Source of the DNA: Candidatus Helarchaeota ASGARD archaeon Hel_GB_B | Lineage (GTDB): Archaea; Asgardarchaeota; Lokiarchaeia; Helarchaeales; HEL-GB-B | NCBI GenBank assembly: GCA_005191425.1 | Contig: SUPR01000151.1 | Span: 1-6,426, forward strand | Length of the DNA: 6,426 nt | Direction of reading: 5' to 3' | Program-made: the position numbers and the translations under genes | Shown: positions 1 to 6,346 of the stretch, one piece after another | Position numbering within the stretch: the first letter of the stretch is position 1 | How the letters are laid out: each line of letters opens with the position of its first letter | Notes under the pieces: generated by a model | The model's input: the letters and a program-made list of their open reading frames with translations, nothing else | Told to the model about the DNA's origin: nothing | Databases searched by the model: none

Positions 1-2181
1 GATGTTAAATGGAATGACCTAAGTCAATATAATCATTCTTCTGGCTATATCTGGAACCAAGGTATTCTATCATTATATCTAGTTCTCCTTAATGATACTT
101 CAGTAACCAAAGGATCCGGATATCCATTACCAAATGGTAGTGCTTATATCTCAAATAGCTCCGGGACACATTATCATAATGTTACCTTCCAAGAGGTCGG
201 GTGGTCTACCAGAGGTGGCGACCCTGTTATTTGCACTCAAGTAGGAAACTCTGCAGATGCACTTTATCGAGTTGATATCAATGTGACTTCTGTTCCAACA
301 ATATTTTCCTCTGAAGTAGGTACTGAATACAATATTAAATTAAGAATGAAAATTGCTACTACTTTTGAAATTGCCGGAAGTGTTTATAAGTGGGAAGATG
401 CTATTTTTTCGCTTAACTTAATAGTATTACCAGACGATGCCGAACTTAGCTTGGAATATTTTACACCGGATCGGAATGACCTCTATTGGGGAGATAAATT
501 CAATGTTACAATTTCATATAGAGATACTACTAACAATTTACCAATTACCAATGGTTCAGGAGATGTTTCAATAAAGTATGACATTATTTATTATATTGGA
601 GGCACTCCTTATATTATTTACACTGGATATGCTGTATCATCCAATCAGACAATTAGCCCTGGCCAATATTATACAGCTACTATTGATACTAATGATGTTA
701 ATTATGCTGAAAATTTTTCGATCCCTTTAGGTCAAACCAGCCGTGAGTTCTTCGTTAAATTTTATACAACTGATATTGGTTTTACAACACCAACACCAGA
801 CCCGGATTATGTAATACATAGACATAAGTATTATGAAGTACAATGGGATTTTTCATTAAAAGCTCGAATTATTGACATGCCCCATCCGACAGGTGACCAT
901 CTATCATTTACAGGCTGGTCTGGGACTGCGGAGATTGTCAAAAATGATTATTTGAATTTCACTATTCGAATTTTTGACGATTGTCCAAGGCCTATAGATG
1001 AAAATATTTCATTAAGAGCACCTGTAAAAGATGTAAATGTCACTTGGATTATTCCAGATTGGGCTGGTCTGCCAGTCTATAAAGGATGGGCATTAACTGA
1101 CGAAAATGGGACTGTGAATTTCTCAATTCCTACTTATTATCCCGCATTATCCTATAATTTCCCATATGAAGTCCAAATTTCATTCCAAAAACAGAATTAT
1201 GCAAGTTATTCAAAATCATTTACACTAAAAATTGTCAGAATTCCTGTAAGAATTAAATGGGTCGGAAATAGGCCTGGCTGCGTCCAAGGAGATATTCAAA
1301 AGGTTTCAGTTCAGATCTGGGATTATTCATATGACGAATATAAATCGGTAATTTCAAATCCAAGTGTCAATGTTTATTGCAGAGTTAAATTAGGTCCAGA
1401 AGTTGTTTATAATGAATTTAAATTAACATATATTGGAAATGGCACATTTGTCGGTGAAATTAATACATGGCCCACATTATTCCATTGGTTAGATGCTAAA
1501 GCTCATGAAATTGAATTTATGGTAGATTTACCAGATGAATATGTCGATATTGCTTATGGAACAAGAGATGCAGATGCTACTATAAGATTTAACATAGATA
1601 GTGCAGGACCATTTGGTCCACTTACAATGCCTATAGTTACAATACTCTCAATAATTGGTGCAATAGCCGCAGTTTATATCACTTATAAAGGCTATAAATT
1701 TTTAACTACTCCCTATCCGATTCGTAAAATCAATGAATCACTGAATAAGATTAAGAAAAATAAAAAGGTAGCATCCGGTGTAATGAAATCTAGAGAGCAT
1801 CTAATTTATCTAGAAATGGCAAGACGGTTCAAATTAATCGGCATCACAATAGAAGCACCTCCGAAAGAAAAATTAGAACCTATCTGGGAACCTTCAGTGC
1901 TCAAAAAGGAAAAAGAAGAACTAATGAAGAAAATACCTGAAGTACCACTCGAAATAATTGAAAAAGAATTGAAAGCTGCCGGAATTACTGATGAAGAAAT
2001 TCCAATTTACATGTCTCAAATAAAAGAATTAGATATCGTAGATCGACACGACTTTATTTCCAGCTTAGTCGGTGAAGAACGATGGGCTCAAATCGAAGCA
2101 GACTTAAAAAAAGACCTTGAAAAAATAGAACCTGGTAAAGAAGAAAAACCTAAAAAAGCAAAAGGTAAAAGCAAAAAATAA
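1..2181 (+). CDS. Large single-pass cell-surface (S-layer/adhesin-like) glycoprotein, 5'-truncated by the window edge (>=726 aa)
   Basis: Frame +1 has no stop from base 1 (DVKWNDLSQYNHSSGYIW...RVDINVTS), so the GTG at 283 is internal. The ectodomain is beta-rich (T/Y/N/I/V) with 16 N-X-S/T sequons. One TM helix lies at ~1621-1686 (LTMPIVTILSIIGAIAAVYITY), followed by a basic stop-transfer segment and a ~165 aa charged cytoplasmic tail. Stop TAA at 2179-2181. Confidence 0.85.
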   Translation, partial: DVKWNDLSQYNHSSGYIWNQGILSLYLVLLNDTSVTKGSGYPLPNGSAYISNSSGTHYHNVTFQEVGWSTRGGDPVICTQVGNSADALYRVDINVTSVPTIFSSEVGTEYNIKLRMKIATTFEIAGSVYKWEDAIFSLNLIVLPDDAELSLEYFTPDRNDLYWGDKFNVTISYRDTTNNLPITNGSGDVSIKYDIIYYIGGTPYIIYTGYAVSSNQTISPGQYYTATIDTNDVNYAENFSIPLGQTSREFFVKFYTTDIGFTTPTPDPDYVIHRHKYYEVQWDFSLKARIIDMPHPTGDHLSFTGWSGTAEIVKNDYLNFTIRIFDDCPRPIDENISLRAPVKDVNVTWIIPDWAGLPVYKGWALTDENGTVNFSIPTYYPALSYNFPYEVQISFQKQNYASYSKSFTLKIVRIPVRIKWVGNRPGCVQGDIQKVSVQIWDYSYDEYKSVISNPSVNVYCRVKLGPEVVYNEFKLTYIGNGTFVGEINTWPTLFHWLDAKAHEIEFMVDLPDEYVDIAYGTRDADATIRFNIDSAGPFGPLTMPIVTILSIIGAIAAVYITYKGYKFLTTPYPIRKINESLNKIKKNKKVASGVMKSREHLIYLEMARRFKLIGITIEAPPKEKLEPIWEPSVLKKEKEELMKKIPEVPLEIIEKELKAAGITDEEIPIYMSQIKELDIVDRHDFISSLVGEERWAQIEADLKKDLEKIEPGKEEKPKKAKGKSKK

Positions 2182-2185
2182 TTGA

Positions 2186-2232
2186 CTTTTTAAATTTTTT
2201 TCCCTTTTTTTTAATTTAATGCATTTTTTTAT
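2186..2232 (+). terminator. Archaeal oligo-U terminator region
   Basis: Clustered T-tracts start 5 nt after the stop: T5 (2187-2191), T7 (2195-2201), T8 (2205-2212) and a further tract at ~2224-2230. U-tract termination is established for archaea. Confidence 0.6.
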
Positions 2233-2304
2233 GTATTTTTATGTTATAAATAAACTGATTTTATTATTATTTTTTATAATTAAAAGATTTTATAACTAAA
2301 TTTC

Positions 2305-2643
2305 TTATTCTTCAATTATTATATCGTTTTTTTCCTCTTTTACTTGCCCACTTTTTTTCATTCTCCGCCAAAAATATATTTTTATAATCTTATACCAGAC
2401 ATAAAGACCTCCTACAATATAAACTAATGCAAGTAAAAACTGAACCGCTGCCGTTATTAAATCCCAGAATTTTTCAGCAATTGGCGTAACTATTGTCACA
2501 TTGGGAGTTAGATTGGTAACATATATTTTAATAAAAAGGAATAAACAAATTAAAGTTATCCAAATGCATGTAATCATTATTAATAAATAAAAATTTTCAC
2601 TTAATTCGTCCTTTATTTTGTTTATTAAGTTCATAGCATTCAT
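2305..2643 (-). CDS. Small 2-TM membrane protein of unknown function (112 aa; alternative ATG at 2634), co-operonic with the GPT gene
   Basis: Two hydrophobic helices (FYLLIMITCIWITLICLFLFIKIYV and LITAAVQFLLALVYIVGGLYVWYKIIKIYFW) and a basic C-terminal RRMKK. It starts 12 bp after the GPT stop on the same strand. Confidence 0.75.
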   Translation of the reverse strand: MNAMNLINKIKDELSENFYLLIMITCIWITLICLFLFIKIYVTNLTPNVTIVTPIAEKFWDLITAAVQFLLALVYIVGGLYVWYKIIKIYFWRRMKKSGQVKEEKNDIIIEE

Positions 2644-2655
2644 CCTTGTATTTTA

Positions 2656-3756
2656 TCAAATAATATGTATAAAAATAGTTAATAATAATGAAATAAATCC
2701 TAAAAAACAACTAAAAGAAGATAAAAGTAAAATATCAAGTGCGATCCTTTTTTCTGATTTTGGTTTATTTGCTAATAAAATTCTCATTAATGTTAATGGC
2801 GCTTTATGGTGATTACTTGCAGTAATCAGTCCATTAGGTAATATTTTAGTAGGTCTATACTTGATTTTTCTACCTTCAACAATTTTACCAATACTCGACA
2901 GCATTTGAAACGCATTAATCACAAACGGTAATATACAAATGATCACAATAAATTCTTGCCCCCCCAAAATTGCAATAGTAGTCAGTCCATAACCTATCGT
3001 AAGTGAGCCCACGTCACCATTAAATACTCTTGCAGGATATTTATTATATTTAAACAATATTATACTTGCCCCTGCCATAATTGCTGCGACAACAAGTCCT
3101 ATTAAGCCCTGCTCCACTGATGTAGGACTACCTCCCAACTTATCTTTAAGTGGAAAAATTATGAAAAAAATTGATGTAATAATCAGTGTGATAAATATTA
3201 TTGTTGAGCTCCCAGACATACTCCCATTGACCACGTCTAACATATTCATTGCATTGGAGACCACACTAAATGCAATTGGTACTATTATAAAATATATAAT
3301 TTGAATAGTAAAACTCCCAATCAGTGGAAAATAAGGAAATGGATTACATATTTTAATTATAAAGAATTGAATTATTAAAATTGGAACACCACCTAAAGTT
3401 AATAATATCGGTTTAACTTTTCCTTTTAATCTAACCTTGTCATCAATAATTCCTATTCCTCCCCCAATTTGAGTTGCTATTAAAAACCCTAGCATCTGAT
3501 ATGTAAATACATCAGTTGGATAATAAATTAATGCTATAATAAATATAATTGTCCCTGTAATTGTTATTGAAATTAATATCCCAACTCCTCCCATCTCTGG
3601 TATTTCCGGTAAACCCTTTTTATGAATATCTTTTCCTACAATCCCTTTATTCTTCATATATTTCATTATTCTTGGCATTATTATTTGTGTTAAAATTAAA
3701 GAAATTATCAGACCACTTATTGCTATTAAAATTATAAAAATAAAATCAGTTATCGT
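2656..3756 (-). CDS. aglH: UDP-GlcNAc:dolichyl/polyprenyl-phosphate GlcNAc-1-phosphotransferase (glycosyltransferase family 4; GPT/AglH/Alg7/DPAGT1-like)
   Basis: Family motifs GKDIHK..PEIPEMGG, GIIDD, NAMNMLDVVNG and YNKYPARVFNGDVGS, plus about 10 TM segments. The frame stays open upstream of the track's ATG (3678) to 3762 and encodes an extra hydrophobic helix (TDFIFIILIAISGLIISLILTQII). The proposed start is ACG at 3756 (366 aa); the start is less certain than the family call. Confidence 0.88.
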   Translation of the reverse strand, partial: TITDFIFIILIAISGLIISLILTQIIMPRIMKYMKNKGIVGKDIHKKGLPEIPEMGGVGILISITITGTIIFIIALIYYPTDVFTYQMLGFLIATQIGGGIGIIDDKVRLKGKVKPILLTLGGVPILIIQFFIIKICNPFPYFPLIGSFTIQIIYFIIVPIAFSVVSNAMNMLDVVNGSMSGSSTIIFITLIITSIFFIIFPLKDKLGGSPTSVEQGLIGLVVAAIMAGASIILFKYNKYPARVFNGDVGSLTIGYGLTTIAILGGQEFIVIICILPFVINAFQMLSSIGKIVEGRKIKYRPTKILPNGLITASNHHKAPLTLMRILLANKPKSEKRIALDILLLSSFSCFLGFISLLLTIFIHII

Positions 3757-4346
3757 TTTATTTTAACCTCTATACTTTTGTAGGATTTTTATTTAATATT
3801 TATATTTTTATTCTGATAATATTTTATCTTAATAATTTTTAGAAAAAAATTTTTATTGGAAAATAATTTCAACGAAATTAGTTTAGCATTTTATTTTTAA
3901 TACTTTTTGGTACCATAATTTGAAAAATAGTACTTATTTCATAATATATTACGAATTTAACATTATTCAGAAAATATTTCTTTAAATATAACCTTAAATT
4001 ATAGATAACATATTTAATAAATCGTTAATTTTCCCCAATTTAGTTAAAAAGTTTTTAGATTATTTTCTTTAAATTCGAATCAGCAATTATTTCAAATTGT
4101 TTTATCTAATTTTAAGCCGAATAGTATTAATGTAATCATTTAGTTAATAACTCTTTATTTCTCTTAAAATTTTATTATTTACTTTCAAATTAATTAATAA
4201 GTAGTACCAAAAAATATTTTAAATTTCACATCTCAATAATCTCAAATCTATAAATTTAATTTTAAATTTAAAATTCTAAAACAACAGATTTAAAAAATTA
4301 CATCAATAATGTATTAACAAAATTATAGGTCGAAGGAAAGATTTAA
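3757..4346. promoter_or_regulatory. Divergent promoter region (GPT operon / ribophorin I-like gene)
   Basis: About 590 bp, extremely AT-rich, no credible ORF, flanked by divergently oriented genes. Many TATA-like hexamers are present and none can be singled out. Confidence 0.55.
3766..3770 (-). promoter_or_regulatory. Shine-Dalgarno-like GAGGT upstream of the extended GPT frame
   Basis: The minus strand reads GAGGT-TAAAATAAA-ACG-ATA-ACT-GAT. GAGGT matches the core of the archaeal SD (GGAGGTGA) and sits 9 nt before the in-frame ACG. Confidence 0.5.
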
Positions 4347-6086
4347 TTGAAAAAAATTGCTTGGATATTGTTAATTAGTATATCAATTTCAATTTTTCTA
4401 TGTTTTATTCCTCAAACTTATGGATATACTCAACAAAATATTAAAATTATTTATATACACCGAAATTTTTCAATTTCTAGAAATGGTATTATTCAAATTA
4501 GTGATAATTATGAAGTTAAAAATATAGGGACTGATCCAGTCAATTTTATTTATATTGGATTGGATGAGACTTTCTATTCAAAAATATCATATTTATCGTG
4601 TATTGATTCTAATGGGCATAAAATGGACTTAAACAGAATACCTAGTTCTGGAAATGGTTTTGAACAGTGGATTTTATTGTTTTTAACTCCTTTATCGCCG
4701 TTGAAAACTATTAACTTCTCAATTACTATGGAATTTATCGATATTATGTCAATTTCATCGAATAAGCGACTTAATATTCAATTTAGTAAATATCCTGCAA
4801 GTCCATATACGATTCAAAAGTATGATGTAGATATTTATTCACCATCTGATAGCACTATTAATAATCCTTATACGGGACAGGATGCAACACCCCCCGTAAC
4901 TGCACCTACAGAAGAGAATTTAACACCATGGCAGGATACAAAATTAAATTTTCACATTACTTTTACTACTGGCACACCTATGCAAGGATTTGTATCAATA
5001 CTTCGGATTATAGATTTAAATCACCTGGGGTATATTCAAGTACAAGAGAAACATAGTGTACGGAATATAGGTCCTATTGGAATGGACGCTTTGAACAATC
5101 CCAAATTCTCGCTTCCAAATAATGCCAAAAACATAAAAATTTATGATAATTTCAGTGTTTTATCTTTTTCAGAAAAGTTGAGCGGACAATATAATAATAT
5201 CACAATAAGTTTACCCCCTGATAGATATGCTCCTCGAGTAGGCGAGACTTTTACTTATTATGTTAATTATATCCTACCTATTGAAGATTTTGTATCTTTT
5301 AATGGTGATATTGTCTATCTTAGAATTGACCTTCTATTTGGTGAATTCAATAGTCAAATTTACCATTACGTATCAAAATTAATACTCCCTACCGGTTCGT
5401 CAATAATTTCATTCTCAAGTGGAAATTCAAAAATAATATTAGACAATGATGATGGAAAACCTATTCTAAAATTTGATGATTATAAAATTACATATCGAGA
5501 TTCTGCGAATATAAATGTTGTGTATAATTCAATAGGTGCATACTGGTATTTGCTTGTTCATCCATTAATAATTTCTTTAATAATTAGTTTAATTGCTACT
5601 GCTTATGTTATAGTCAAACGAGGACTGCCTTATACACGCGTAGAAATTAAGCGGAAAACCGTAGTTTCTCCTTCTGCTTTACGGGAATTTTCCATACTTT
5701 ATGAGCAAAAAATTGCAGTTTTAATAGAAATGGACAAATTAGACAATGATTTCCAGCGTCGAAAGTTACGAAGTCGAGAATACAGGAAATTACATAAAAC
5801 CGCGGAAAAAAATTTACTAGAATTAGACAAATCTCTAGAAGAATTAAAACCTGAGTTCCGTAATGTTGGCGGACGTTATAAAGAGATAGTCGATAAATTA
5901 GAAATTCTAGAAGGTGAGAAAACTACAATTAAAGACAGCCTTATGCGATTACAAGCTAAATACAAACGAAAACAAATTAAACCAATTGCATATCGAAAAC
6001 TTAATGAAGATTTCCAAAATAGACTCAAAAAAATAAAGTCTAATATGGAAAAATTGGTCCAAGAGTTAAGAGATTATATTACATAA
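4347..6086 (+). CDS. RPN1: Ribophorin I (OST1/RPN1)-like oligosaccharyltransferase accessory subunit
   Basis: TTG start after GAAGGA, and a signal peptide (MKKIAWILLISISISIFLCFIPQTYG). Two related luminal beta-domain motifs (HRNFSISRNGIIQISDNYEVKNIG and LRIIDLNHLGYIQVQEKHSVRNIG) resemble the RPN1 'R.I..ShwG.i.veE...l.N.G' motif. DRYAPRVGE sits where RPN1 has PRYPLFGG. One TM helix (HPLIISLIISLIATAYVIV, ~5550-5615) precedes a helical cytoplasmic tail. This matches RPN1 architecture. Confidence 0.78.
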   Translation: MKKIAWILLISISISIFLCFIPQTYGYTQQNIKIIYIHRNFSISRNGIIQISDNYEVKNIGTDPVNFIYIGLDETFYSKISYLSCIDSNGHKMDLNRIPSSGNGFEQWILLFLTPLSPLKTINFSITMEFIDIMSISSNKRLNIQFSKYPASPYTIQKYDVDIYSPSDSTINNPYTGQDATPPVTAPTEENLTPWQDTKLNFHITFTTGTPMQGFVSILRIIDLNHLGYIQVQEKHSVRNIGPIGMDALNNPKFSLPNNAKNIKIYDNFSVLSFSEKLSGQYNNITISLPPDRYAPRVGETFTYYVNYILPIEDFVSFNGDIVYLRIDLLFGEFNSQIYHYVSKLILPTGSSIISFSSGNSKIILDNDDGKPILKFDDYKITYRDSANINVVYNSIGAYWYLLVHPLIISLIISLIATAYVIVKRGLPYTRVEIKRKTVVSPSALREFSILYEQKIAVLIEMDKLDNDFQRRKLRSREYRKLHKTAEKNLLELDKSLEELKPEFRNVGGRYKEIVDKLEILEGEKTTIKDSLMRLQAKYKRKQIKPIAYRKLNEDFQNRLKKIKSNMEKLVQELRDYIT

Positions 6087-6154: not shown

Positions 6155-6346
6155 ATGATACGAATTTATATAGACTTAGAAAAATGTGTTGGATGCGGGC
6201 AATATATCAATGCATGTCCTTTAGGTATCTATTATATTGACCCAAAATTGAAAAAAGCCAAAATAGATGATCTTAAAAATTGTCTTGAATGTAGAGCTTG
6301 CGAAATTCAGTGTAAAAATGGTGCAATAAAAATTAATATAATTTGA
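6155..6346 (+). CDS. 2x[4Fe-4S] dicluster-type ferredoxin (63 aa), first motif degenerate
   Basis: IDLEKCVGCGQYINACP...CLECRACEIQCKNGAI fits the CxxCxxCxxxCP x2 pattern, except Tyr17 replaces the third Cys and K follows the last Cys. Confidence 0.85.
   Translation: MIRIYIDLEKCVGCGQYINACPLGIYYIDPKLKKAKIDDLKNCLECRACEIQCKNGAIKINII

Follow-up and report, generated by a model that had tools for sequence, protein, structure and literature searches.

Does a short Asgard contig, on which a gene for the first step of lipid-linked glycan synthesis is divergent from a ribophorin I-like gene, represent an oligosaccharyltransferase (OST) gene cluster, and is the small membrane protein encoded next to the transferase one of the OST subunits? 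The window analysed here, 6,426 nucleotides long, is the whole of contig G000:C60 (6.4 kb) of a Helarchaeales-type Asgard archaeon. We consider it probable that this contig carries two modules of a single N-glycosylation pathway, one consisting of the transferase GPT with the small protein B, and the other of RPN1, a subunit that would work beside STT3. The pieces are known from Asgard archaea; what is new is the GPT partner protein B and the conserved linkage of the genes.

Gene content of the contig

GPT and RPN1 are divergently transcribed, and ORF A runs towards B and GPT in convergent orientation (Table 1). An ORF check recovered every gene that the first-pass annotation had described, each in its described place. 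A ferredoxin gene that was missing from that gene list closes the contig; it likewise lies directly 3' of RPN1 in relatives of the same family (L036 and L037, family f1) and in L045 and L051 of family f14, while in f20 a ferredoxin copy is found near RPN1 on the opposite strand.

Table 1. Features of the 6.4-kb contig, with the evidence for each
Feature	Positions	Strand	Evidence
ORF A, giant surface protein C-terminus	1-2181	+	ORF, open at 5' end, 726 aa
ORF B, two-TM protein	2305-2643	-	ORF, 112 aa
GPT, Alg7/AglH/DPAGT1-type	2656-3678	-	340 aa from first ATG; Pfam Glycos_transf_4
GPT in-frame 28-codon extension	3679-3762	-	translation and alignment with relatives
AT-rich spacer separating the divergent GPT and RPN1 genes	3763-4346		composition, no ORF of at least 28 aa, no Rfam match
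Repeated AT-rich element of ~100 bp, inserted in the spacer	3799-3900		second copy in G000:C38
Conserved 24-nt block, candidate promoter element	4201-4224		comparison of window, L036 and L037 spacers
RPN1/OST1 homologue	4347-6086	+	579 aa, TTG start; Pfam Ribophorin_I
Ferredoxin, 2x[4Fe-4S]	6155-6346	+	63 aa; Pfam Fer4_10 and Fer4_7

The 579-aa protein is a ribophorin I homologue

The product of the rightward gene is a true ribophorin I/OST1 homologue, as the first-pass annotation had proposed, and three lines of evidence agree on it. It matches Pfam Ribophorin_I (PF04597) with 66.6 bits (curated cut-off, 25 bits) in two segments (profile positions 4-229 and 256-436), and no match to this family was found in any of 14 control genomes. 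Searched against the PDB, the profile of alignment A1 retrieved human RPN1 (6s7o_E) over its full length (RPN1 residues 34-584; E 2e-38), the 161-aa 'Ribophorin 1 superfamily protein' 8whn_A over the tail (E 1e-35) and yeast Ost1 (E 2e-26). Finally, in a fold search of the PDB with the AF2 model (pLDDT 87.4), the best eight matches were all RPN1 or Ost1, with E values between 5e-23 and 9e-31 and TM-scores up to 0.74; the next match had an E value of 6e-8. The model comprises a signal-peptide helix (residues 2-20), strands between residues 32 and 394 forming two luminal-type beta-sandwich domains, a single TM helix at about 396-425, followed on the cytosolic side by a four-helix bundle at 442-578 (helices 442-470, 476-507, 510-540 and 546-578). 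In RPN1 of the metazoan and Asgard type, a C-terminal bundle of this kind docks the ribosome. The TTG start of the gene and a AAGGAAAG motif upstream of it are kept in relatives.

The closest structures are those of mammalian RPN1 in OST-A and OST-B (PDB 6S7O, 6S7T, 8B6L) and of yeast Ost1 (6EZN, 6C26), with which the archaeal protein shares the order of signal peptide, two beta-sandwich luminal domains and one TM helix, and, with the mammalian protein, also the cytosolic four-helix bundle. Unlike them, it resides in the cell membrane instead of the ER, its gene adjoins GPT, and the identity is just 14-16%. OST1 as described for the Asgard archaeon MK-D1, 'Ca. Prometheoarchaeum syntrophicum' (PMC11417166), and the protein of PDB entry 8WHN are members of this family too and share the cytosolic helical tail; the protein described here comes from a different order, shares 24-25% identity with Lokiarchaeales-type copies and differs from the MK-D1 type in having GPT as a divergent neighbour. 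The Sec61-beta gene of the genome analysed here is located elsewhere. RPN1 homologues had been put forward as an Asgard feature; according to Carilo et al. 2024 (PMC11417166), TACK archaea, like Asgard archaea, possess OST1 and OST3/6.

As for the remaining OST parts expected in the same genome, a single STT3 was found, on contig C113 and thus not on the RPN1 contig. The same contig C113 encodes a 191-aa OST3/6-like candidate that is marginal, since it matches OST3/OST6 (PF04756) with 27.5 bits against a cut-off of 27, only over the membrane part (profile positions 176-282), and falls to 26 bits, below the cut-off, in a six-frame search. OST48, RPN2, DAD1 and OST4 were not found above their cut-offs in this genome, OST48_N scoring 18.9-21 bits against a cut-off of 36.

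The transferase and its unusual start

Judged by its Pfam match, its profile and its motifs, the leftward transferase is of the Alg7/AglH type, in line with the earlier assignment. Pfam Glycos_transf_4 (PF00953) matches with 82.7 bits (cut-off, 27 bits), and this is the only PF00953 match, and thus the only gene of the PNPT family, in the genome. The Asgard GPT profile has human DPAGT1 as its best PDB match (E 1.4e-24, 89.9 bits), followed by MraY (1e-22, 83.8 bits), and in a single-sequence search the two rank the other way (MraY 1.1e-10, DPAGT1 2.4e-10); the lead of DPAGT1 over MraY in the profile search, only 6 bits, gives no firm indication of the sugar specificity. The motifs DD..K, N..N..D..NG and YP..VF.GD align with DPAGT1, the invariant residues being D107, D108, K117, N170, N173, D176, N179 and G180, and an F..G motif and an aspartate near position 250 are also present.

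The open frame of GPT continues in the 5' direction beyond its first ATG up to a TAA stop at 3763-3765. This extension contains no ATG, GTG or TTG, encodes TM1, is conserved in the alignment with relatives, and has ACG at the position where L036 has ATG. The ACG is kept in contigs of three other samples, in which the changes within this extension are two synonymous ones and one I>V substitution. The product may therefore start at an unusual codon or lack TM1.

Known systems comparable with this GPT are Alg7/DPAGT1 (PDB 5LEV, 6BW5) and archaeal AglH, such as those of S. acidocaldarius and M. voltae (Meyer et al. 2017; Shams-Eldin et al. 2008; both as cited in PMC8993221). It shares with DPAGT1 the PNPT superfamily and an alignment from TM1 to TM9, and differs from it in a shorter cytoplasmic loop before the last helix (about 32 against about 68 residues in the profile). 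Unlike both Alg7/DPAGT1 and AglH, it lacks a canonical start codon before TM1, and the Asgard GPT has a two-helix partner, either separate or fused.

Protein B as a probable partner of GPT

That partner is ORF B, which the first-pass annotation had listed as an unknown small subunit next to the RPN1-like protein. B is a two-TM hairpin with a basic C-terminal tail and two sequons in its external loop, and its gene starts 12 nt past the GPT stop. It matches no Pfam family. B has also been compared with the OST small subunits (OST4, OST5/TMEM258, DAD1/OST2, OSTC), none of which turned up in its Pfam matches up to E = 1 or in its NCBIfam matches, its gene context being GPT, and with Alg14 (PF08660), again with no Pfam match. 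The family comprises 130 clusters at 50% identity among 1.84 billion proteins, mostly of 80-110 aa, and we found no description of a two-helix GPT partner in the literature consulted.

B lies immediately 3' of GPT in families f1, f14, f17 and f20. Across the phylum, 63 of the 72 matches of a B profile are GPT-linked: 46 are adjacent to GPT and 17 lie inside a GPT frame of 450-489 aa. Such fusions, in which the B module follows the GPT C-terminus after one extra helix, occur in f2, and the pairing is also seen on other metagenome contigs. A model of the GPT-B complex reached a median ipSAE of 0.85, a measure of model confidence and not of measured binding, against 0.00 for the best of three controls; of 80 solved complexes, 58 attain the mark applied to this score, as do 2 of 110 mismatched pairs, a rough calibration made with our own alignments. 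The model runs share at least 77% of contacts, and the partner has a pLDDT of at least 73. Adjacency, fusion and the predicted complex thus identify B as a putative dedicated partner of GPT.

The alternative, in which B is a subunit of a multi-subunit OST, like OST4, OST5/TMEM258 or DAD1, and the locus combines donor synthesis with an OST complex, draws on the size and topology of B (a small two-TM protein, about as large as DAD1 or OST5), on the sequons of its external loop and on the 1.7 kb that separate its gene from that of RPN1. We find it hardly credible, given that B matches none of the Pfam families of OST small subunits, that the model places it on GPT, that it stays linked to or fused with GPT phylum-wide, even in families whose RPN1 gene lies on a different contig or at a distance of hundreds of kb (such as f5, f6, f15, f16 and f26), and that in f28 it adjoins DUF354, not RPN1 or STT3. 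The small-subunit reading of B was accordingly abandoned in favour of a GPT partner.

In the mechanism that we propose for the module on the minus strand, GPT would transfer HexNAc-1-phosphate, probably GlcNAc-1-P, to dolichyl phosphate at the cytoplasmic face of the membrane. According to the complex model, the first helix of B would pack on the last two helices of GPT, and its basic tail would rest on the GPT cytoplasmic loop before the last helix, an arrangement that may exist as a physical complex in the cell. In Lokiarchaeales-type relatives, in which GPT and B form one polypeptide, the extra linker helix would keep the topology.

The divergent spacer

The region 3679-4346 is AT-rich (GC 17-20%), and its spacer part, 3763-4346, contains no ORF of at least 28 aa and no Rfam match. 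In the relatives L036 and L037 the spacer measures only about 325-350 bp. The inserted AT-rich element has its second copy at G000:C38:4650-4749 (94% identical over 102 bp); in run X3, one contig lacks 3800-3888, and numerous short contigs with greater depth terminate at the element. A 24-nt block, found once in the genome, is located some 120-145 nt ahead of the RPN1 start; it comprises GTAGTACC and, after it, an A/T run resembling a BRE/TATA element. It is near-invariant among the window, L036 and L037, the other spacer sequence being not alignable, and we infer that it is a candidate promoter element.

Linkage of RPN1 and GPT across Asgard families

Conservation of the adjacency in relatives had been named as a check of the earlier reading, and it was found: RPN1 and GPT lie at most 7 kb apart on one contig in seven Asgard families. 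These are f1 (the window, L036 and L037), f2 (22 of the 29 genomes having both genes), f8 (2/2 checked), f13 (3/3), f14 (2/2), f17 (3/3) and f20 (4/4), counts that come from related genomes and are not independent samples. In a genome of 3.5 Mb, two genes would be expected to fall within 7 kb of each other by chance with a probability of about 0.4%. Gene order varies among the linked families, being divergent, tandem or convergent. STT3 was never found within 10 kb of RPN1 in the genomes sampled. The linkage is missing from f4, f5, f6, f15, f16, f23, f25, f26 and f28; in two complete f6 genomes, 450-490 kb separate the two genes.

Proximity might carry no functional meaning, as an ancestral remnant or because the genes hitch-hike among the many envelope genes of the region. 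The absence of linkage in about ten sampled families would fit this, as would the differences in orientation and spacing and the variable intervening genes (Trm112-like, acetyltransferase, aminotransferase, AP_endonuc_2). We regard this explanation as unlikely, however, since closeness outlasts rearrangements of order and strand in seven families, the pattern expected if closeness itself is kept; 'any glycosylation gene' is not the rule, because RPN1 is never beside STT3; and in the family of the window the 24-nt block persists in a spacer whose remainder has diverged. Because the two modules are near each other in seven families and RPN1 never lies beside STT3, the linkage does not describe an 'OST operon' but points to the co-inheritance or co-expression of glycan initiation with an OST helper, whose regulation may be shared.

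The same gene neighbourhood could be taken to mean that Asgard RPN1 does not assist STT3 but mainly serves the glycan-building enzymes, as a scaffold or a handler of lipid-linked glycan that acts with GPT, B and DUF354. Linkage of its gene to GPT, in f2 to DUF354 as well, and never to STT3 would fit such a role. This seems very unlikely to us: fold, topology and tail match those of RPN1 inside solved OST complexes, most of the protein lies on the outer side, whereas the chemistry of GPT is cytoplasmic, and Carilo et al. 2024 (PMC11417166) report binding of eukaryotic ribosomes by the cytoplasmic domain of an Asgard OST1, which fits a role at the translocon. The module on the plus strand would most likely supply RPN1, a subunit without catalytic function that would work at the Sec translocon together with the one STT3/AglB of the genome.

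The surface protein

ORF A has a full-length homologue of about 2040 aa at L036:1889-8008 (1301 bits), and since the contig extends no further than the window, ORF A covers just the C-terminal third of such a protein. It is of type I: residues 1-538 form the ectodomain, one TM helix starts at 539, and a cytoplasmic tail of some 160 aa, rich in K and E, follows. It matches no family in Pfam, NCBIfam or PHROG; as a lead only, Atlas features liken it to Ig-like and macroglobulin-like archaeal surface proteins (scores of at most 0.84). Of its 17 N-X-S/T sequons, the ectodomain contains 16. In 2000 shuffles keeping composition, 5.0 +/- 2.0 sequons were obtained and none (0/2000) reached 17; among the genome's ORFs of at least 300 aa, its sequon density stands at the 95.5th percentile. 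On this excess over the roughly five expected, the protein is probably glycosylated.

The 16 ectodomain sequons and the convergent orientation thus agree with the first-pass annotation, which had also taken the protein for a likely substrate of the locus. It adjoins the GPT and RPN1 genes only in the closest relative, so that its place next to them is no evidence for a dedicated substrate. The giant surface protein is a plausible client of the pathway whose position is lineage-specific.

A possible second step and its meaning

In eukaryotes Alg7 is paired with Alg13/Alg14, and in bacteria MraY with MurG. Alg13 and Alg14 were not found in most Asgard archaea (Meyer et al. 2022), and we found no Alg14 candidate in the genome of the window. 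By family, the distributions nearly complement each other: Alg14 is present in f4 (4/4), f8 (38/43), f19 and f27 and almost nowhere else, whereas DUF354 and B occur in about 19 families, and the four that lack them are exactly these Alg14 families. The genes for GPT, B and DUF354 lie next to one another in many Asgard families, as they do on other archaeal contigs. Across families, the B-type GPT goes together with DUF354 and not with Alg14, which makes DUF354 a possible candidate for the missing second-step enzyme. We tentatively suggest, as an idea with somewhat less than an even chance of being right, that in most Asgard lineages, including that of the window, N-glycans are initiated by a previously undescribed three-part complex of GPT, the membrane adaptor B and, for the second step, the orphan GT-B-fold family DUF354, in place of Alg13/Alg14. 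Such a complex would resemble the eukaryotic and bacterial pairs in joining a PNPT enzyme to a GT-B-fold protein through a small membrane element. It would differ from them in that B has no detectable similarity to Alg14 and that DUF354 is a different Pfam family, its nearest solved folds being UDP-GlcNAc 2-epimerases and not MurG. If this is true, the position of RPN1 beside the initiation module would suggest that initiation was coupled to a translocon-bound OST before eukaryotes arose.

Gene content of the contig

The window is the whole of a 6426-bp contig (G000:C60) from a genome of 3.5 Mb that is 94% complete, and the gene layout given by the first-pass annotation was correct, with five genes found on the contig (see the table below). 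Among relatives of the RPN1 protein, one with 61% identity is filed at NCBI as 'Candidatus Lokiarchaeota archaeon'. A scan of the whole window against Rfam (E <= 1) returned no RNA families. The last of the five genes codes for a 2x[4Fe-4S] ferredoxin, and such ferredoxins (62-70 aa) lie directly 3' of RPN1 in two distant Asgard families, f1 (that of the window) and f14, and nearby in f20.

Features of the window and of the other loci considered (unprefixed positions are those of the window; G000, the window's own genome; C, contigs; L, other loci compared; f, Asgard families)
Feature	Location	Strand	Remarks
ORF A, sequon-rich surface protein	1-2181	+	5' end open
ORF B, two-TM protein	2305-2643	-	112 aa
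GPT, GT4-family transferase	2656-3678	-	
In-frame region coding for the first TM helix of GPT	3679-3765	-	
Divergent spacer between GPT and RPN1			very AT-rich, GC 17-20%
Spacer repeat	3799-3900		AT-rich, ~100 bp
Part of the repeat absent from one other strain	3800-3888		89 bp
Second copy of the repeat	G000:C38:4650-4749		94% identical
Conserved spacer block	4201-4224		24 nt
RPN1	4347-6086	+	579 aa, TTG start
Ferredoxin, 2x[4Fe-4S]	6155-6346	+	63 aa
Ferredoxin copies after RPN1 in other loci	L036:11843-12034; L037:3265-3453; L045:5820-6029; L051:5464-5649		
Trm112-like genes	L038:6144-6767; L040:3361-3981; L045:7852-8577		207-242 aa
STT3/AglB	G000:C113:24035-28954		1640 aa
OST3/6-like membrane protein	G000:C113:14906-15478		191 aa
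DUF354	G000:C138:2099-3163		
Loci with ORF B next to DUF354 (f28)	G123:C6:4128-5295; G190:C25:104-1229; G199:C207:21506-22685		
Gene next to a DUF354-GPT-B operon	L058:6250-6936		metagenome contig

Identity of the initiating transferase and of ribophorin I

The claim of an Alg7/AglH-type transferase is supported by the Pfam family Glycos_transf_4 (82.7 bits) and by a profile from nine Asgard GPT relatives, whose top match is human DPAGT1 (E 1.4e-24, 89.9 bits, from TM1 to TM9), with MraY just behind at 83.8 bits. Since DPAGT1 is the best profile match and the DD..K, N..N..D..NG and YP..VF.GD motifs align with it, the enzyme appears by sequence to be of the Alg7/AglH type, from which we infer its sugar specificity. 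It is the only gene of the PNPT family found in the genome. The codons for the conserved first TM helix lie in frame 5' of the first ATG, with no ATG, GTG or TTG before them; at the position of the ATG of the closest relative the window reads ACG, and the frame is closed a little further upstream by a TAA stop. Because this ACG is retained in contigs of three other samples, in which the 28-codon stretch differs by two synonymous changes and one I>V only, the stretch is probably translated from a non-canonical start codon, the alternative being a protein that lacks TM1.

Also in agreement with the earlier proposal, both HMM and structure identify the product of the divergent gene as ribophorin I. 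It matches Pfam Ribophorin_I at 66.6 bits (cut-off 25), and a profile built from 21 Asgard homologues recovers human RPN1 (6s7o_E, residues 34-584) at E 2e-38, yeast Ost1 at E 2e-26 and, on the C-terminal tail, 8whn_A, a structure of 161 aa that bears the name 'Ribophorin 1 superfamily protein' (E 1e-35). In the AlphaFold model (pLDDT 87.4) a signal peptide is followed by beta-sandwich domains that extend to residue 394, a single TM helix and a cytosolic bundle of four helices. The best eight fold matches of this model in the PDB are all RPN1/Ost1 chains from the OST of human and yeast, with E-values of 5e-23 to 9e-31, the ninth dropping to E 6e-8. This identity is nothing new in kind, as Asgard OST1 is already published, with a cytoplasmic domain reported to bind eukaryotic ribosomes, and OST1 and OST3/6 have been reported in TACK archaea too (PMC11417166).

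RPN1 is linked to the initiating enzyme

Of the 201 genomes sampled from the phylum, 103 have an RPN1 homologue; the 14 control genomes have none. Seven families have RPN1 and GPT on one contig, at most 7 kb apart. Gene order is identical in the two relatives compared within f1 (L036 and L037), and in f2, a Lokiarchaeales-type family, the genes are linked in 22 of the 29 genomes that have both, most of the seven unlinked ones having them less than 2 kb from contig ends. The same linkage was seen in f8 (2/2 checked), f13 (3/3), f14 (2/2), f17 (3/3) and f20 (4/4), in orientations that are divergent in f1, f8 and f20, tandem in f2 and f13, and convergent in f14 and f17. RPN1 and GPT are apart in f4, f5, f6, f15, f16, f23, f25, f26 and f28. 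In the same genomes STT3, the catalytic OST subunit, was never found within 10 kb of RPN1, the closest distances being 34-38 kb (f15 and f23). Thus, of the conserved adjacency suggested initially, the proximity of RPN1 and GPT held in seven families and the reading as an OST gene set did not: the conserved unit is RPN1 with the initiating enzyme. As far as our searches show, this linkage is undescribed in the literature. Two other kinds of gene recur around RPN1: a Trm112-like zinc-ribbon protein with a long insert, after RPN1 in f2 and within the RPN1/GPT region in f14, and AP_endonuc_2 (xylose-isomerase-like TIM barrel) genes, near RPN1 in L036, L037 and L043.

Between the window and its two f1 relatives, the divergent spacer is conserved in two parts only, a block that is unique in the genome and the region of the ribosome site and TTG start of RPN1. 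We infer that the conserved block may have promoter function and that GPT and RPN1 may be co-regulated. The window's spacer exceeds those of the relatives by about 250 bp, part of which is a repeat with a second copy elsewhere in the genome; one other strain is without most of this repeat, and it is where many short contigs of higher depth terminate. The repeat may be a miniature mobile element. A search for hidden spacer ORFs, such as Sec61-beta, found nothing of 28 aa or more, and the Sec61-beta gene of the genome is on contig C128.

The remaining machinery was looked for in the same genome, as had been recommended, and one STT3/AglB gene and an OST3/6-like gene were located on contig C113. 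The latter adjoins a CDP-archaeol synthase gene 9 kb from STT3, and its product scores 27.5 bits against a Pfam cut-off of 27, with the membrane part alone covered. The STT3 frame greatly exceeds the 690-1300 aa that are usual in other Asgard families. No convincing OST48/Wbp1 was found: the best candidate reached 18.9-21 bits, where the cut-off is 36, and fits the description of a GIFT-domain protein better.

A small membrane protein is the partner of GPT

The product of ORF B has two TM helices, joined on the outside by a loop that carries two sequons, and its tail is basic. It has no Pfam family; neither ORF B nor ORF A has a PHROGs match, and Atlas searches with both gave scores below 0.9, which are leads only. 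B lies immediately downstream of GPT in relatives of f1, f14, f17 and f20, and a profile of eight copies, searched across the 201 genomes, gave 72 matches outside the window's own genome, 63 of them tied to GPT: 46 directly after the GPT gene and 17 in a fused frame. The fused copies are found in f2, at the C-terminus of GPT frames of 450-489 aa, and are preceded by one extra helix between the last GPT helix and the B module, needed to keep B in its in-in topology because the C-terminus of GPT faces out. The pairing holds where the RPN1 gene is far away (f5, f6, f15, f16 and f26) and, by an exhaustive profile search, on metagenome contigs as well.

When GPT (with TM1) and B were modeled as a complex, the score was 0.85 (0.83-0.85 across the runs) versus 0.00 for the best of three controls; among reference cases, 58 of 80 solved complexes come up to this mark, as do 2 of 110 mismatched pairs, a comparison that is rough since our own alignments were used here. 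At least 77% of the contacts were common to the runs, with a partner pLDDT of at least 73, and the first helix of B is predicted to touch GPT residues 271-290 and 342-358, and its tail the GPT loop 314-333. No solved PNPT structure that includes a partner of this kind is known to us, and the score is therefore unlikely to reproduce a complex that the predictor had been trained on. The complex is a prediction and not a measurement. Given that gene context and model both tie B to GPT, B is not an OST subunit, as the first-pass annotation had it, but a dedicated partner of GPT. Such a two-helix partner, split or fused, was also found to be undescribed in the literature that we searched.

The neighboring surface protein

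In ORF A, for which no known family was found, 17 sequons were counted (16 in the ectodomain), where shuffled sequences give 5.0 +/- 2.0, and its sequon density is in the top 5% of the genome. From its sequence it is therefore very likely to be an N-glycoprotein. A role as a dedicated substrate is not supported, since only the closest relative shares its position beside the GPT/RPN1 genes.

DUF354 as a candidate for the second step

DUF354, an orphan family of GT-B fold, is a recurrent neighbor of the GPT/B pair (among L041, L043, L044 and L058-L061). In f15 and f16 it shares an operon with the pair, in the order DUF354-GPT-B; elsewhere it is convergent with the pair in f5, f17 and f20, lies inside the RPN1/GPT cluster in f2, and is near GPT/B on other archaeal contigs too. 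In f28, B adjoins DUF354 and not GPT, an arrangement that fits B as an adaptor between the two enzymes. At the family level, with families that are few and related, DUF354 is nearly the mirror image of Alg14, being present in about 19 families without Alg14, while Alg14 occurs in f4 (4/4), f8 (38/43), f19 and f27, the families without DUF354 and B; in one f4 genome Alg14 is 4 kb from GPT. In the window's own genome neither Alg14 nor Glyco_tran_28_C (Alg13/MurG type) was found, and the one DUF354 gene lies next to ATP-grasp and HAD hydrolase genes. On one metagenome contig, the gene following a DUF354-GPT-B operon has a sub-threshold match (81 bits, cut-off 132) to NCBIfam 'Sel_Asgard, putative selenocysteine system protein'.

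In most Asgard archaea Alg13/Alg14 went undetected in the work of Meyer et al. (2022). The neighborhood of DUF354 with GPT/B and its distribution complementary to that of Alg14 make it a candidate there for the enzyme that carries out the second step of building the glycan, B possibly serving as a membrane adaptor. DUF354 cannot be taken as an established transferase, because the solved folds nearest to the DUF354 model (pLDDT 89.4) are UDP-GlcNAc 2-epimerases, not MurG or Alg13. No PDB sequence match was found for DUF354, and a 2015 survey noted that few transferase catalytic residues are conserved in it (PMC4520260). Equating DUF354 with Agl24 was rejected: the Agl24 paper does not mention DUF354, and S. 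acidocaldarius, among the control genomes, has no PF04007 match.

Implications for Asgard N-glycosylation

Ribophorin I and Alg7 belong to opposite ends of the glycosylation pathway of the eukaryotic ER, and Asgard archaea are already known to have both. The observation at this locus is confirmed and its first interpretation is partly supported, with components of known kinds. What the locus adds is organization: the gene for an OST helper keeps to the neighborhood of the initiating enzyme, not to that of the catalytic STT3, and a small membrane protein is the conserved partner of the initiating enzyme, as a separate protein in some lineages and as part of a fusion in others. If the DUF354 lead is true, it would identify the second-step enzyme of the lipid-linked glycan in most Asgard archaea, a question that publications have left open, and would give a function to a 25-year-old orphan Pfam family.
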